DNA from: a virus
Lineage: Duplodnaviria; Heunggongvirae; Uroviricota; Caudoviricetes
Strand: one strand, 5' to 3'
Length of the DNA: 4,324 nucleotides
Virus record (IMG/VR): IMGVR_UViG_2534681764_000020
Location: 1-4,324 of that record
Every line of letters begins with the position of its first letter. The first letter of the stretch is position 1. Shown piece by piece: positions 1 through 4,324 of this stretch. The notes beneath the pieces are model-generated. The model was not told the origin of the DNA. It did no database searches and saw only the letters and a program-made list of their open reading frames with translations. The position numbers and the translations under genes were made by a program.

Positions 1-573
1 ATGTTTTGCGAAGAAAAAGTAGCTCAAATGGCTGCATACCTACTTCTTAAGCGAGGTGGGCGCATGGCATATCTGAAATTGATGAAGTTGCTCTATCTGT
101 CTAACCGCCAGTCGATTTTGAAGCATGGCAGGATGATCGGCGAAGATAGCCTTTACTCTATGAAATTTGGACCAGTCATGTCGAATACGCTGAACTTGAT
201 TCGCGGTAAGGCTGAAGGCATTGGTGACTACTGGTACAACTTGATAGAGACGAACGGGCATAATGTATCGTTGCGTTCAGATCCGAGGGAAATGGATGCA
301 GACGAGGTCTTTGATGAATTGAGTCGTGCAGATATCCGGATTTTAGATGAAATCTATTCTCGGTATGGGCATATGAACCGATTTGATCTCGCAAATATGA
401 CGCATTTAGAAAGCGTTTGTCCAGAGTGGCACGATCCTGGCAATTCTCGTAAGCCTATAGACCTGAAAGAAATGCTGATCAGTGAGGGTAAAAGCGAGGA
501 TGAGGCTAATCGCATAATTGGCAAAATGGAAGAATCTCAGAAACTTAAGGAATTTTCTTTGCAATTATCATGA
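1..573 (+). CDS. Panacea-domain (DUF4065) protein, PanA/SocA/GepA-like putative antitoxin; N-terminus may extend beyond the window
   Basis: The 190-aa ORF contains the segment LKLMKLLYL...GEDSLYSMKFGPVMSNTLNLIRG, which matches my recollection of the conserved Panacea core (LKLQKLLY...W.YGPV). Its stop codon overlaps the start of the next ORF (ATGA at 570-573). The ATG at position 1 coincides with the window edge, so the true start is uncertain. Confidence 0.72.
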   Translation: MFCEEKVAQMAAYLLLKRGGRMAYLKLMKLLYLSNRQSILKHGRMIGEDSLYSMKFGPVMSNTLNLIRGKAEGIGDYWYNLIETNGHNVSLRSDPREMDADEVFDELSRADIRILDEIYSRYGHMNRFDLANMTHLESVCPEWHDPGNSRKPIDLKEMLISEGKSEDEANRIIGKMEESQKLKEFSLQLS

Positions 574-989
574 CGGATTATCAGCCATACAGGAAAGGAA
601 CTGTGCTTGCCCCAACTGGGCCATGCAATCATCTTCATGTGATTTGTAATGATCCTGTTTATTACCCCGTTAACGATTGTTATTGTGTTTTAGTTGTTAA
701 TATTTCTAGTATCAAGGATGGTGTCCCCCACGATCCGTCTTGCGTCTTGAATTCTGGTGATCATCGCTTTATCAAGCATCCAAGTTATGTTGTTTACGCT
801 GAAGCTATAATTTGGCGAGTGGATAACATGGTTAGAAAGCAGCGATCGGGTGAGATTTCTGTTCATGATGATATGCCAGAAGCTACATTCAATAGAATTC
901 TGGACGGTTTTGATATCTCTGATGAAGTTACGCCAAAGAACCTTAAATTTAAAAATAAATATTGCGTATCATCTATTGATGATGAGTAA
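570..989 (+). CDS. hypothetical protein, candidate cognate toxin/effector of the Panacea-domain protein; fold unrecognised
   Basis: 139-aa ORF whose ATG overlaps the upstream stop by 4 bp (ATGA), suggesting translational coupling. There is no nearby Shine-Dalgarno sequence (AAGGAA lies about 18 nt upstream). The N-terminal half is Cys/His-rich (CNHLHVIC, CYC, SC...DH). The DNA looks AT-rich relative to the neighbouring operon. No family recognised from memory. Confidence 0.55.
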   Translation: MTDYQPYRKGTVLAPTGPCNHLHVICNDPVYYPVNDCYCVLVVNISSIKDGVPHDPSCVLNSGDHRFIKHPSYVVYAEAIIWRVDNMVRKQRSGEISVHDDMPEATFNRILDGFDISDEVTPKNLKFKNKYCVSSIDDE

Positions 990-1017
990 ACAACAGGAAT
1001 TGTTTCGGTATAACTTC

Positions 1018-1022
1018 AGGAG
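1018..1022 (+). promoter_or_regulatory. Shine-Dalgarno (AGGAG) for the 57-aa ORF
   Basis: AGGAG lies 6 nt upstream of the ATG at 1029. Confidence 0.6.
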
Positions 1023-1028
1023 TTTTCT

Positions 1029-1202
1029 ATGGAAGATCAAAAAGCAACCAAGCCACAGGTTAAGTTCGACACAATGAAAGCATTCGCAGGTATGGGTGCT
1101 GCTGTTGAAGTTCTGATGAAGGCTGCTCCTAATGCGTTCACTCACGCTACTGTCTCTGGTAAAGAGCAGCAGGGTAAGCTTCGTCGTCGCAAAGCAGCAT
1201 GA
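1029..1202 (+). CDS. small hypothetical protein (57 aa), not in the supplied ORF track
   Basis: Manual translation gives MEDQKATKPQVKFDTMKAFAGMGAAVEVLMKAAPNAFTHATVSGKEQQGKLRRRKAA, ending at TGA 1200-1202. It has a good RBS and is followed within 20 nt by a strong intrinsic terminator. Codon choice (GGT, GCT, CGT, GTT, TTC, CTG, AAA) resembles highly expressed enterobacterial genes. There is a hydrophobic/amphipathic core and a basic C-terminus. Confidence 0.5.
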   Translation: MEDQKATKPQVKFDTMKAFAGMGAAVEVLMKAAPNAFTHATVSGKEQQGKLRRRKAA

Positions 1203-1221
1203 TCATAGCTGGTGCTTTTTG

Positions 1222-1250
1222 AAAACCCGCCTTTAGGCGGGTTTTTTATT
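1222..1250. terminator. Rho-independent terminator at a convergent gene junction, probably bidirectional
   Basis: Perfect 10-bp inverted repeat AAAACCCGCC / GGCGGGTTTT with a 4-nt loop (TTTA), followed by TTTTTTATTT on the plus strand. It lies immediately 3' of both the plus-strand 57-aa ORF and the minus-strand gene ending at 1250. On the minus strand the trailing U-run is weaker (GGGUUUUC then A-rich). Confidence 0.82.
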
Positions 1251-1531
1251 TAGTGATGTTCTTTGCCCTTCTGTTTGCTTGTTCTGACCTGTTCCCACTC
1301 GATACGTCCTTCTTCTCGTCTTTTGTCTATGTATTCCGCAAGATCCTGAATATTGATGCAACGTTTTGCTTTTTGTGATGTGCCGATGCGATATGTTGGA
1401 ACGGGCAACTTACAAGCGTTTGCTTTTGCTTCTGCCGTGGATGGACTCATACCAAAGTACTTTTGGCTAACTGCTGAGAGTTCAATGTTTGGGGTATTGA
1501 ATTCAGCCATCAGTAAAAACAAGGTGTTCAT
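1250..1531 (-). CDS. PrtN/excisionase-like small DNA-binding protein (putative phage Xis or regulator)
   Basis: The ORF track gives 1250..1558, but that start is GTG with no RBS. The in-frame ATG at 1531 is preceded by GGAG with a 6-nt spacer and gives 93 aa. The segment IELSAVSQKYFGMSPSTAEAKANACKLPVPTYRIGTSQKAKRCINIQDLAEYIDKRREEG resembles PrtN/AlpA-type winged-helix proteins as I recall them. It is the last gene of the operon. Starts at 1543 or 1510 remain possible. Confidence 0.5.
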   Translation of the reverse strand: MNTLFLLMAEFNTPNIELSAVSQKYFGMSPSTAEAKANACKLPVPTYRIGTSQKAKRCINIQDLAEYIDKRREEGRIEWEQVRTSKQKGKEHH

Positions 1532-1567
1532 AATTTTCTCCATCAAAACCGGCTGCACCCGGGAAAA

Positions 1568-2140
1568 TCATAATTCTGTGCTGGTGGCAGGAATTAATTT
1601 CTGCCAGATAGCGGAAACATATTTTGCCTGATGACGGGCATCAGCCCGGGCGTTGTGCCGTTCGCCATCGAAAGGCATGTCCATTTTGGGGTCGAATCCG
1701 ATGGAACGCCCAAGCGTAACGATCGTGCGTACATCGTGGTCATTCCAGTATGCCCACGGGCAGATTTGTCCTGCTCGCTCATAAGCTCCACGTAAAATTA
1801 CGTTGTCGAAGGTGGCCCCGTTACCCCAGACTTTTAAATATTTCGTATTGTCTGCGTGCCGGTTAATGAAATGATTTAGTTCTGAGAGAGCATCGCTGAT
1901 CGACAAAGTATCATCAATGCAGATTGCAGCTCGTGCTTCAGGGCTTTGTTTCAACCACCACAGGATGGTATCGCCGTCAGGTGTAGCTCCTTGCTTCATA
2001 GCACTGTCTAGGCTGACAACCGCATAGAATTCTTGTCCGATGTCTCCGGTTTCGGGGGTGAAGAACACTGCGCCAATAGAAACGATCGGCGCATCCTTAT
2101 TTTTCCCCATCGTCTCAAGGTCGATCATTAAGTTGTTCAT
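1568..2140 (-). CDS. DEDDh-family (DnaQ-like) 3'-5' exonuclease, phage-type
   Basis: Motifs read directly from the translation: Exo I MIDLETMG (D, E), Exo II WGNGATFDN (D), Exo III H-NARADA (H...D). The track ORF (1568..2224) is over-extended: the ATG at 2140 is preceded by AGGAGGTG and overlaps the upstream stop as TGATG, giving 190 aa. Confidence 0.85.
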   Translation of the reverse strand: MNNLMIDLETMGKNKDAPIVSIGAVFFTPETGDIGQEFYAVVSLDSAMKQGATPDGDTILWWLKQSPEARAAICIDDTLSISDALSELNHFINRHADNTKYLKVWGNGATFDNVILRGAYERAGQICPWAYWNDHDVRTIVTLGRSIGFDPKMDMPFDGERHNARADARHQAKYVSAIWQKLIPATSTEL

Positions 2141-2421
2141 CACTTCACCTCCTGCGGCGGTTCTTGTATTGGCATCGACTGAGCTATATATAGCGGCTGA
2201 ACATACCAGCCCTTTGATAACCAACTGTCAGCAACGTTTTTACTTCTGGTTATTGCTGGAATACCCAAGCCATTGTCTGAATGCAGCCATGCCACCGGTT
2301 CTGCTTCCAGCGAGGCTAACGCTATTTCATAAGCTCGGCGCTCAATATTGTCTCGCACGTCCAAGCTGCCTATGCGCTCTTTGATTTCTTTAATCAGTTC
2401 TTTGTCGGTAAAAGTGGTCAT
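2140..2421 (-). CDS. hypothetical phage protein (93 aa)
   Basis: ORF with an AAGGAG RBS 6 nt upstream of the ATG at 2421. Its stop overlaps the exonuclease start. No family assigned confidently; contains EPVAW and PLY motifs of the sort seen in prophage proteins of unknown function. Confidence 0.6.
   Translation of the reverse strand: MTTFTDKELIKEIKERIGSLDVRDNIERRAYEIALASLEAEPVAWLHSDNGLGIPAITRSKNVADSWLSKGWYVQPLYIAQSMPIQEPPQEVK
2146..2153 (-). promoter_or_regulatory. Shine-Dalgarno (AGGAGGTG) for the exonuclease gene
   Basis: Reverse complement of 2146-2153 is AGGAGGTG, 5 nt upstream of the ATG at 2140 (minus strand). Confidence 0.65.
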
Positions 2422-2431
2422 GTGTTACTCC

Positions 2432-2695
2432 TTAACCCGCAGTGCTTTCAACTGACGAGGGGAACAAAATCTTTTCATCAAATCCGGCATTCATATCATG
2501 GACAGCAACACACCAATCCATTGACGAACGATTATCAAGAGCCTCCATGATTTCATCCATGCGGCGTAGGTCATACAGGTAAATATTTTTATCGCCAATG
2601 GTGTAAAAACCAATTTTTTTCGGTGATGGACAGCGATCAATAACGTCCTGTAATTCGTTCAACCATGCCTGTTCTTTTTTTGTCAAAGTTGCCAT
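2432..2695 (-). CDS. hypothetical phage protein (88 aa)
   Basis: Trimmed from track ORF 2432..2785 to the internal ATG at 2695 (MATLTKKEQAWLNEL...), which sits 1 nt after the upstream gene's stop and has an AAGGA motif upstream. The longer N-terminal extension would overlap the membrane-protein ORF. Confidence 0.5.
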   Translation of the reverse strand: MATLTKKEQAWLNELQDVIDRCPSPKKIGFYTIGDKNIYLYDLRRMDEIMEALDNRSSMDWCVAVHDMNAGFDEKILFPSSVESTAG

Positions 2696-2696
2696 A

Positions 2697-2915
2697 TCAG
2701 TTTTCCTTATACGGATTAATTTTATTGTGCAGTGTGTTGAACGACGCCCATACCACGTCGTTATACAATTCAATAACTGGCTCAATTATTTTCCCGATTG
2801 CCCAGACAAAAATTAGCGGGGATATCGGTATCATCAACACGATAAACAGAATGAGAAACAGGAATTCTGTCGTTCTACTCTTTCGCGGATATTCTTTTCT
2901 GAATAATGTCGGCAC
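2697..2915 (-). CDS. small single-pass membrane protein (72 aa), probable GTG start
   Basis: A basic N-terminus (RKEYPRKSRTTE) is followed by a roughly 24-residue hydrophobic segment (FLFLILFIVLMIPISPLIFVWAIG), consistent with an N-in transmembrane helix. The start codon at 2915..2913 is GTG, preceded by GGAGAG. AT-rich. There is no in-frame ATG that would keep the TM segment. Confidence 0.5.
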   Translation of the reverse strand: MPTLFRKEYPRKSRTTEFLFLILFIVLMIPISPLIFVWAIGKIIEPVIELYNDVVWASFNTLHNKINPYKEN

Positions 2916-2916
2916 A

Positions 2917-3249
2917 TCACTCTCCTTTGATGCGAATGCCAGCGACGCGTAGTGCGTGTTCTAAGTCAATCAGGCAAAGCCAACTGCCATTTTCTTTAGG
3001 TATCATGACATGTCGCTTATCAGCATTTATTGGGTGCCCATATCGAAGGTCGTAGCGAGTCGGTAATTGAACTTCCCTCGCTTCCAGTTCTGTAATGCGT
3101 TTGTTTTTAGCTTCTAGTTCATCCAGCAGCGCCAGCACAACCTGCGGTGTGACTTTCATACGAAATGCCAGCAATTTTTGTGGTGTGGCTACTATTTTTA
3201 TTGCTTCTGCCGCCTCACGCAGTGCCTGATAGTTAATTTTGGTTGTCAT
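2917..3249 (-). CDS. Ead/Ea22-like family phage protein
   Basis: 110 aa; N-terminal INYQALREAAEA and the central VLALLDELEAKNKRITELEAR coiled-coil segment match my recollection of Ead/Ea22-like prophage proteins. The start overlaps the upstream stop as ATGA, with a GAGGTG RBS. Confidence 0.6.
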   Translation of the reverse strand: MTTKINYQALREAAEAIKIVATPQKLLAFRMKVTPQVVLALLDELEAKNKRITELEAREVQLPTRYDLRYGHPINADKRHVMIPKENGSWLCLIDLEHALRVAGIRIKGE

Positions 3250-4124
3250 GCCACCACCTCTTCGAATTTCAACTCCAATTGATCACCCCAGATTTCACAT
3301 GACTCTGAACACGAGCCGGTATCGAATCGCCTGGCTTGCACCATCGCCTGATACAAATTTCTGTAGTCGCTGTCGGCATACATTCTGGCAATCCCGTCAA
3401 GACTCAGATGACCACGGTACATAACGTCTTTATCTGTCTTTCGGTGACCATCCCGGACGTGTTTACCTGTAACCAGCTCATTAAAAACTCTCATCAGACC
3501 AGGTTCGTCTTTACATGCAAGCCCCAGCTTTTGCGTGGACTTTTTGATGCAGAAAACACAGTTCCCGAGGTGCTCCGGGATTTGCAAATCAAAAGGTTGT
3601 TTATGCCACCACCGGATAACATCCGACTTATCAAAATCAGATAGCTCGGCAAGATACCGGACGCCTGATTTCGGTTTCAGCCTACGAGGTTCGTCTGCAC
3701 GAATACCCAGCCATGTGATGTAATTCCCTCGTCCGAAATGGTCATCGCAGTATTTTGTGAAGGGGGTGAGTTTTAATCTGTCAGTGCAGAACGCGCCGCC
3801 GATGTATGGCGTGCCATATTTTTTTACCATGTCCATAAACGGTTTAAGCACCGGCATTCGCGTCTGAATATCCTTTGGTTCCCATTCCGTATAACCATTT
3901 GGCTGCCCAAGCTCTGGATTTATATCGACCTGCAACACAGTTAGCGGTATGCCCCAGAACTTCACAACCTCCCGAATAAAGCGGTATGTCAGCGGATGTT
4001 CGCAACCGGTATCCATAAAGATGTAGCAGACGTTATTACCAGCCTTTCTTTGTTCTTCCATCAGGTGAACAAGATATGCAGATGTTCTCCCGCCAGAAAA
4101 ACTAACTACATGAGTTATGCACAT
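3246..4124 (-). CDS. phosphoadenosine phosphosulfate (PAPS) reductase family protein, PP-loop ATP pyrophosphatase superfamily
   Basis: 292 aa; an N-terminal PP-loop-like motif VVSFSGGRTS (a variant of SGGxDS), a conserved D-T-G segment and a C-terminal CxxC (CVFC). Its position in a prophage early operon next to an Ea22-like gene is common in enterobacterial prophages (from memory). Confidence 0.8.
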   Translation of the reverse strand: MCITHVVSFSGGRTSAYLVHLMEEQRKAGNNVCYIFMDTGCEHPLTYRFIREVVKFWGIPLTVLQVDINPELGQPNGYTEWEPKDIQTRMPVLKPFMDMVKKYGTPYIGGAFCTDRLKLTPFTKYCDDHFGRGNYITWLGIRADEPRRLKPKSGVRYLAELSDFDKSDVIRWWHKQPFDLQIPEHLGNCVFCIKKSTQKLGLACKDEPGLMRVFNELVTGKHVRDGHRKTDKDVMYRGHLSLDGIARMYADSDYRNLYQAMVQARRFDTGSCSESCEIWGDQLELKFEEVVA

Positions 4125-4321
4125 TTGCGTAATTCCGATAACTCGTTGAAGCGTGCCATAAACATCCCGTAGGCATGGCCCGGTGCCAGTGGAATCACGT
4201 TGAACATCTCTGTTGCCGGGATGCCTTCCAGTACAGGCCAGAAAGAGCCATCATCAAGCCCGAGATCGCGGCGTTCGGTTGCCAGCATGATGAGATCGGC
4301 ATATTTCACGGGTGTACTCAT
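4115..4321 (-). CDS. hypothetical protein (68 aa or longer), start possibly beyond the window edge
   Basis: The ORF overlaps the PAPS-reductase start by 10 nt. The reading frame is still open at the window boundary (codon 4322-4324 is sense), so the ATG at 4321 may be internal. Confidence 0.45.
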   Translation of the reverse strand: MSTPVKYADLIMLATERRDLGLDDGSFWPVLEGIPATEMFNVIPLAPGHAYGMFMARFNELSELRKCA

Positions 4322-4324
4322 AAC

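Follow-up and report, generated by a model that had tools for sequence, protein, structure and literature searches.

A stand-alone member of the lambda NinC family in a prophage early operon, and its relationship to a Vibrio phage protein linked to escape from Dnd defence

The DNA analysed here (the window) is the stretch of 4,324 nucleotides at positions 1 to 4,324 of the IMG/VR virus record IMGVR_UViG_2534681764_000020, from a virus of the Caudoviricetes, and its minus strand carries a gene for a PAPS-reductase-like protein. This gene belongs to the lambda NinC family, in which it is a stand-alone member; the family forms a divergent branch within the PAPS-reductase/PP-loop superfamily. The protein is 78.7% identical to NinC (Orf290) of phage lambda over its full length (residues 2-292) and 55% identical (283 aa, E 2e-110) to the NinC module of p0018 from Vibrio phage 44E38.1, one of two genes whose transfer allows a Dnd-sensitive phage to infect a Dnd+ host. 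Based on the pattern of conserved residues and on the company that these modules keep, the protein may be an early-expressed, iron-sulfur (Fe-S)-dependent enzyme whose mark on the DNA of the phage protects it from phosphorothioate-based defence, a reading that is quite possible but that we would not yet call probable.

Results

Family, fold and abundance

A reading of the window made earlier from its sequence alone had assigned the protein to the PAPS-reductase family with a PP-loop fold, and had put the fold forward beforehand as a point on which it could be refuted. Both assignments held. Pfam PF01507 is matched at 37.1 bits against a gathering cut-off of 22.5 (E 4.3e-9), over residues 5-72 only, while phrog_424 (E 2e-93) and phrog_33262 (E 1e-92) are matched over the full length. 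In the AlphaFold2 model, built from 45 homologs (pLDDT 86.6, pTM 0.84), a Rossmann-like alpha/beta PP-loop fold is present and is confident except at residues 273-292, a C-terminal tail with pLDDT below 50 that is predicted to be flexible. A set of 5.8 billion proteins contained 5052 homologs at E ≤ 1e-3 (best E 1.8e-203), the family has 1658 representative clusters at 50% identity, and the gene is carried by 551 of 5426 complete E. coli genomes, so the open reading frame (ORF) is not a chance one. The NinC-like gene is thus common, as the sequence-only reading had said of prophages, and is already annotated in RefSeq. Copies in Shiga toxin (Stx) phages are 93-94% identical to the window protein. 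NinC of lambda is non-essential and has been described as poorly understood.

Similarity to a likely anti-Dnd protein of Vibrio phage 44E38.1

The Vibrio protein p0018 (our homolog P0097) is a 479-aa fusion of a PAPS-reductase module with Dam (Piel et al, 2022, Nat Microbiol 7:1075; preprint 10.1101/2021.05.05.442762). When p0018 and p0019 were moved into a Dnd-sensitive phage, it gained full infectivity on a Dnd+ host; the recipient phage already had a Dam of its own, with 96% identity to that of the fusion (10.1101/2021.05.05.442762). For the promotion of Dnd evasion by a phage PAPS reductase, a paper of 2026 refers to Piel et al (2022). The motifs SFSGGRTS, DTGxEHP, FCTDRxKL, GIRADEP, GNCVFCIKK and GSCSESCE are common to p0018 and the window protein. 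Since p0019 is a DUF6475 protein encoded beside the replication initiator of 44E38.1, the NinC module is the likelier anti-Dnd determinant of the two. As a conserved partner of NinC, p0019 was dropped, being a replication-module gene; Pfam and PHROG scans gave no DUF6475 or phrog_10105 among the window ORFs. The relationship to p0018 and the full-length homology to lambda NinC both go beyond the sequence-only reading.

Conserved residues

Conservation was assessed in alignments of 45 close members of the family and of 108 divergent members with identities down to about 32%. The variant SGGRTS loop and the CVFC pair, to which the sequence-only reading had drawn attention, are both confirmed (Table 1), and the R-T-S variant is a family-wide trait: amongst the 108 members position 13 is arginine in 85 and lysine in 8, position 14 is threonine in 95, serine in 10 and aspartate in none, and Ser15 is kept in 105. 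Thr39, Gly40 and Glu42 of the second motif are near-invariant in both alignments. Cys113 and Lys118 are present in 108/108, Arg142 and Arg148 are invariant with Asp144 and Glu145 in 106-107/108, and Gly187, Asn188, Cys189 and Lys195 are likewise found in every member, with Cys192 in all but one (107/108). In the tail Cys272 is kept in 104/108 and Cys276 in 107/108. The NinC signature, comprising SGG[RK][TS]S, C113, K118, R142/D144/E145/R148, GNCxxC and the C-x-x-x-C tail, is complete in the window protein. The other cysteines were ruled out as ligands, Cys126 because it is conserved in only 39/108 and Cys2, Cys33, Cys41 and Cys204 because they show no conservation among the 108.

As a phmmer search of residues ~94-218 against the PDB returned a spurious match only, plasmid-borne CysH and APS-reductase (adenosine 5'-phosphosulfate reductase) sequences were chosen for the Fe-S comparison. 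Aligned by hhalign with four Fe-S-type APS/PAPS reductases and E. coli CysH (probability 96.4%, E 1.2e-9), the NinC profile places Cys113 on the first cysteine of the CC pair of 'CCxxRKxxPL', Lys118 on its invariant lysine and Pro121 on its invariant proline. The CxxC pair, which lies outside this alignment, resembles the 'SxGCxxCT' of Fe-S-type APS reductases and may be its equivalent. One of the tail cysteines might supply the last ligand of a cluster or else bear a persulfide. The tail is analogous in position to the mobile catalytic tail of CysH, though the ECGLH of the latter is absent. One further comparison was dropped: chain C of PDB 21fy ('PptA', 270 aa) matched in phmmer with an E of 0.56, with collinear EHP...RF and NCVGC segments, and the family profile search lost the match. 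PptA, a recent deposition, might be a remote member of the PAPS-reductase-like proteins that has a CxxC pair; a literature search for it found nothing.

Relation to DNA phosphorothioation enzymes

Of the PADLOC models the best match was to SspD, with 55.7 bits and an E of 1.5e-15 over profile positions 2-125 of 277, which is the N-terminal ~45% of the model. The matches to DndC (E 9e-4, ~134 of 468 positions) and to BrxP (E 1e-4, ~50 positions) were marginal. In control searches with the SspD model, lambda NinC, the Vibrio protein and the Acinetobacter plasmid homolog described below all scored 52-56 bits and two genuine CysH proteins 14-17 bits, the latter scoring higher on BrxP, and NinC is therefore nearer to SspD than CysH is. 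By these profile scores the NinC-like protein appears to be neither SspD nor DndC, with SspD its nearest characterised relative. The Aravind-lab reappraisal of Dnd systems does not mention NinC.

Association with DNA methyltransferases

NinC modules occur in fusion with PF05869 Dam, either before or after it, and with a PF02086 D12-class adenine methyltransferase, and in Salmonella phage Oslo, where ninC lies in the nin region as it does in lambda, the Dam and ninC genes overlap. The gene neighbourhood was surveyed at 80 IMG/VR loci representing 43 clusters, adjacency being taken, as defined for Dam, to mean fused or within 300 bp on the same strand. Dam was adjacent in 8 of the 43 clusters, NinB in 4 and NinG in 3. 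One IMG/VR contig has an uninterrupted ORF of 968 aa (L063, 4582-7488) that joins a PF00145 C5-cytosine methylase, a NinC-like module and a PF05869 Dam; on the other contigs of the same NinC cluster (L060, L064 and L065) the ORF with the NinC module is only 496-521 aa and stops short of that upstream region. In the prophage of the window, the PF05869 Dam is a separate gene in the nin region, ~6 kb from the NinC-like gene.

The family extends to around 140 conjugative plasmids, mostly ~70-kb plasmids of Acinetobacter, whose NinC-like gene product has 31% identity to the window protein, keeps SFSGGRTS and GNCxxC and has no C-terminal CxxxC tail. In the one plasmid inspected, pOCUAc19-1 (MOBF/MPF_F), the gene (L013, 6983-7756) is 1.2 kb from an orphan PF02384 N6 methylase. 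Many small unknown genes also surround it. NinC modules occupy variable accessory slots in phages and plasmids. The orphan methyltransferases that mobile elements carry serve to mark DNA protectively, and it is in their company that NinC is found.

Tests of the sulfur-metabolism annotation

The database product name and the PHROG category 'moron, auxiliary metabolic gene' would make the gene a phage copy of cysH, an auxiliary metabolic gene (AMG) whose product reduces PAPS/APS to sulfite and boosts sulfur assimilation by the host. A 2026 paper takes phage PAPS reductase to be a true AMG in this sense, including that of Gilliamella phages, and reads the Gilliamella and Snodgrassella phage genes as sulfur-metabolism AMGs correlated with land use (PMC13369170). 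Against the CysH equivalog NF002537, with its cut-off of 154, the window protein reaches 20.3 bits, and it does not match TIGR02057, TIGR00434 or TIGR02055, whereas E. coli CysH, the positive control, scores 323 and 346.5 bits on CysH models. Its profile alignment to CysH spans just 63-108 N-terminal columns. The catalytic C-terminal ECGLH is absent, the NinC-like protein ending instead in ...DTGSCSESCE..., while the motif E-C-G-[LIM]-H was invariant in 5/5 CysH and APS reductases compared. Unlike genuine cysH loci, the locus as seen in E. coli CUPF06 (see below) has no sulfate-assimilation genes (cysIJ, cysDN, cysC, sat) near the gene and all neighbours are prophage early genes, in line with the remark of the sequence-only reading that there was no obvious metabolic role; where NinC modules are fused, their partners are DNA methyltransferases. 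The 'sulfur AMG' label is unsupported for the NinC family, and the prevailing AMG annotation is probably wrong. A Gilliamella homolog in our set (P0104) belongs to the NinC family and so to a family that fails the CysH tests, the comparison being with this homolog and not with the genes of PMC13369170 themselves.

Gene, operon context and neighbouring features

The window is 100.0% identical over its whole length (the gene alone 99.9%) to a lambdoid prophage of E. coli CUPF06 that adjoins a dusA fragment. There the genes for an XRE repressor, YfdP, YfdQ, YfdR, the NinC-like protein, Ea22, DUF4014, two hypothetical proteins, a 3'-5' exonuclease and Xis follow one another on one strand, a set that constitutes an early-left (pL-type) operon. 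The NinC-like gene would, because of this location, be made immediately on infection or induction. Its start codon lies in a 10-nt overlap with the 3' end of yfdR and its stop overlaps the start of the Ea22-like gene as ATGA. Both the early operon and the translational coupling to the Ea22-like gene had been proposed from the sequence and are upheld. No convincing promoter or terminator was found inside the NinC-like gene, and an Rfam scan of the window gave zero matches.

Table 1. Positions in the window of the NinC-like gene, its immediate neighbours and the conserved motifs of its product
Feature	Position	Strand	Remarks
NinC-family PAPS-reductase-like PP-loop protein	3246..4124	-	ATG start, 292 aa
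yfdR 3' end, HD-domain 5'-deoxynucleotidase	4115..4324	-	phrog_318, phrog_6402; RefSeq annotation
Ead/Ea22-like gene	2917..3249	-	PF13935, E 7.3e-12
PP-loop variant SFSGGRTS, residues 8-15	4080..4103	-	canonical Asp replaced by Thr; SGG[RK][TS]S conserved in 108 members
DTGCEH, residues 38-43	3996..4013	-	aligned by hhalign with CysH 'TDTGYLFPETY'; aligns with the 'DTG' nucleotide-binding motif of CysH/APS reductases
C113-T-D-R-L-K118-L-T-P121	3762..3788	-	aligns with the APS-reductase 'CCxxRKxxPL' Fe-S-ligand/substrate-binding motif
GIRADEPRR, residues 140-148, acidic and basic	3681..3707	-	aligned to 'GLRRDQS' of CysH-type enzymes
GNC189VFC192IKK, residues 187-195, CxxC then conserved lysines	3540..3566	-	candidate Fe-S ligand pair
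GSC272SESC276E, predicted flexible C-terminal tail	3294..3317	-	cysteine conservation

In the survey of IMG/VR loci, adjacency of yfdR and the NinC-like gene was seen in 1/43 clusters, that of the window itself (its own clade, a cluster of at least 90% identity), and yfdR was for this reason dropped as a functional partner. In the otherwise collinear phage Lys8385Vzw a gene annotated 'Eae' (L095, 4286-4897) is found directly downstream of the yfdR HD hydrolase with the same 10-nt overlap. Since 'Eae' there replaces the NinC-like gene, the slot after yfdR would be an exchangeable accessory cassette.

Several other features of the window were noted. On the plus strand, an ORF at 1-573 encodes a Panacea/SocA-domain antitoxin (Pfam E 2.2e-19) and overlaps through ATGA a 139-aa ORF at 570-989 (phrog_19071, no Pfam domain), the two forming a candidate PanA-PanT toxin-antitoxin pair with an unclassified toxin. 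The position of the pair, at the prophage end, is one at which an integrase should normally be found next to xis; the CUPF06 annotation has only a dusA fragment before it and lists no integrase there. The same strand also carries, at 1029-1202, an ORF of 57 aa that has a good AGGAG ribosome-binding site and is hypothetical in RefSeq, with no family assigned to it. Between this plus-strand unit, which ends at 1202, and the convergent minus-strand operon, in which xis ends at 1250, there is a strong GC-rich hairpin at 1221-1246 with T-runs on both sides (GAAAACCCGCC-TTTA-GGCGGGTTTTT), probably a bidirectional terminator. A Rv2179c-like DEDDh 3'-5' exonuclease (1568-2140, minus strand, Pfam E 4.8e-74) belongs to the same operon as the NinC-like gene. 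Piel et al mapped the escape of their Vibrio phages from retron Ec48 to an RNaseT/DnaQ-type exonuclease (10.1101/2021.05.05.442762), with no kinship to the window exonuclease implied.

Discussion

The earlier, hedged suggestion that the protein might modify nucleic acid or counter a host defence is the direction in which the evidence points. Its companion statement, that the function is not established, stands as far as the biochemical activity is concerned and no longer stands in full, in that a 55%-identical Vibrio homolog has published genetic evidence of escape from Dnd. For the protein as a writer of a protective mark, the following course would seem plausible. A nucleotide, probably ATP, would be bound at the unusual SGG[RK][TS]S loop, while Cys113, Cys189 and Cys192 together with Cys272 or Cys276 of the tail would hold a [4Fe-4S] cluster or form a persulfide relay. 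Sulfur might be drawn from the host cysteine desulfurase (IscS) and passed to the phage DNA, a phosphorothioate-type mark being the most likely product, and DNA so marked would be taken as self by DndFGH-type, and perhaps Ssp-type, defences. In many relatives, the fused or adjacent adenine or cytosine methyltransferase could provide DNA targeting and a second protective mark.

A number of observations weigh against such a function. DNA modification by NinC-type proteins has so far not been demonstrated. Established phosphorothioation requires a P-loop nucleoside triphosphatase (NTPase; DndD, SspC or BrxC) together with a protein for DNA recognition (DndE or SspB), and neither kind of protein was found in the window or in the 14 kb on either side of it in CUPF06, nor at the lambda, Oslo, PA2 and Vibrio loci. 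The similarity to SspD is confined to the N-terminal part of that model and that to DndC is marginal. The canonical aspartate of the PP-loop is missing family-wide, so that ATP pyrophosphatase activity cannot be taken for granted, the Fe-S ligands are candidates proposed from alignment and conservation, and the C-terminal tail is unmodelled here and absent in the plasmid clade. The Vibrio transfer involved two genes and a fusion protein, rather than a stand-alone NinC, and did not address the mechanism. DNA of lambda, a ninC+ phage, is widely used as unmodified and we know of no report of phosphorothioate in it, which disfavours a constitutive, host-independent activity. Finally, Dnd systems are uncommon in E. 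coli, yet the gene is found in about a tenth of complete genomes of this species, which suggests a broader or different target.

A bolder form of the DNA-marking proposal, doubtful in our view and still a real possibility, is that NinC proteins in general are partner-independent or methyltransferase-guided writers of a sulfur mark on DNA, either phosphorothioate or a novel thio-modification, and so provide epigenetic camouflage for phages and conjugative plasmids.

Counter-defence could also be achieved with no mark on the DNA, were the protein an inhibitor or decoy of DndFGH- or Ssp-type effectors or of the host Dnd/Ssp modification proteins, or a consumer of a small-molecule or nucleotide cue. 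This would fit a protein that stands alone with neither NTPase nor DNA-recognition partner and whose resemblance to DndC and SspD is restricted to the nucleotide-binding half, and it would be compatible with the published anti-Dnd phenotype; anti-Dnd proteins unrelated to PAPS reductase do exist, JSS1_004 being an example. Against this, the catalytic-type residues (PP-loop, DTG, K118, R142/D144/E145/R148 and five cysteines) are near-invariant down to ~32% identity, which suggests an enzyme, and the repeated fusion to active-type DNA methyltransferases is better explained by a common DNA substrate. We consider a mark-free inhibitor or decoy unlikely.

Rather improbable, too, is a PP-loop/Fe-S thiolase or amidotransferase that acts on RNA, tRNA or a free nucleotide or cofactor, in the manner of TtuA, NcsA, TtcA, LarE or QueC, and tunes translation or nucleotide pools. 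The profiles give PF01507, with SspD closest, and not the TtcA/TilS or QueC families, the protein has no THUMP, PUA or other RNA-binding domain, the fusions are always to DNA methyltransferases and never to RNA-modifying domains, and the neighbouring nucleotidase gene yfdR is, as described above, a companion in a single cluster. Some records carry the name 'NinC-like recombination protein', and an accessory role in recombination or replication alongside NinB (Orf) and NinG (Rap) would match the position of the gene between or beside ninB and ninG in lambda, Oslo and the Vibrio podovirus and its adjacency to them in a few of the surveyed clusters. In the window and in Stx phages the gene is away from both, in the pL operon, Dam is a commoner neighbour than either, and the protein has no nuclease or DNA-annealing fold; such a role is very improbable. 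That the gene is a phage cysH which supplies the host with sulfite is, given the tests above, scarcely credible.

Few lambda genes besides ninC still lack a function. Relatives of NinC occur in ~10% of complete E. coli genomes, in Vibrio and Salmonella phages by the hundred and on conjugative plasmids of Acinetobacter. Metagenomic studies routinely tally these relatives as 'cysH', and the unsupported label affects ecological conclusions. Were counter-defence their true role, NinC-type genes would represent a widespread means of evading phosphorothioate-based immunity, possibly through a minimal DNA-sulfuration enzyme, with relevance to the choice of therapy phages and to tools for DNA backbone modification. 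Should the proteins indeed write a sulfur mark, lambda NinC would be the founding member of the first DNA-sulfur modification system of mobile elements to lack a DndD, SspC or BrxC ATPase. The methyltransferase fusions supply a hypothesis that is concrete and testable.

Comparison with known systems

The Fe-S APS reductase of PDB 2goy and the CysH proteins of 6vpu and 1sur are set apart from the window protein by several features: it falls below the cut-offs of the CysH and APS-reductase hidden Markov models and has no ECGLH, its loop is the glycine-rich SGGRTS where the reductases have a degenerate 'SFG', it has an extra C-terminal helical region of ~70 residues and its gene is outside any sulfate-assimilation context. 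With SspD, DndC and BrxP it has the PAPS-reductase superfamily in common and also, to judge from the sequences, a cysteine-rich and presumably Fe-S-dependent PP-loop architecture. It is, however, much shorter than the DndC (468-586) and BrxP (779) models and its PP-loop is without the canonical aspartate. Vibrio 44E38.1 p0018, encoded in an early or nin-like phage region, has a C-terminal PF05869 Dam domain, whereas the window protein stands alone, its 292 residues including no methyltransferase domain; the anti-Dnd phenotype belongs to the p0018/p0019 transfer, to which the window gene is linked by homology alone. Lambda NinC is encoded in the nin region of the pR operon, between ninB and ninD, while the window gene lies outside the nin region, in the early-left operon between yfdR and the Ea22-like gene, as in Stx phages. 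The two proteins are nonetheless of the same length class and have the same conserved residues.

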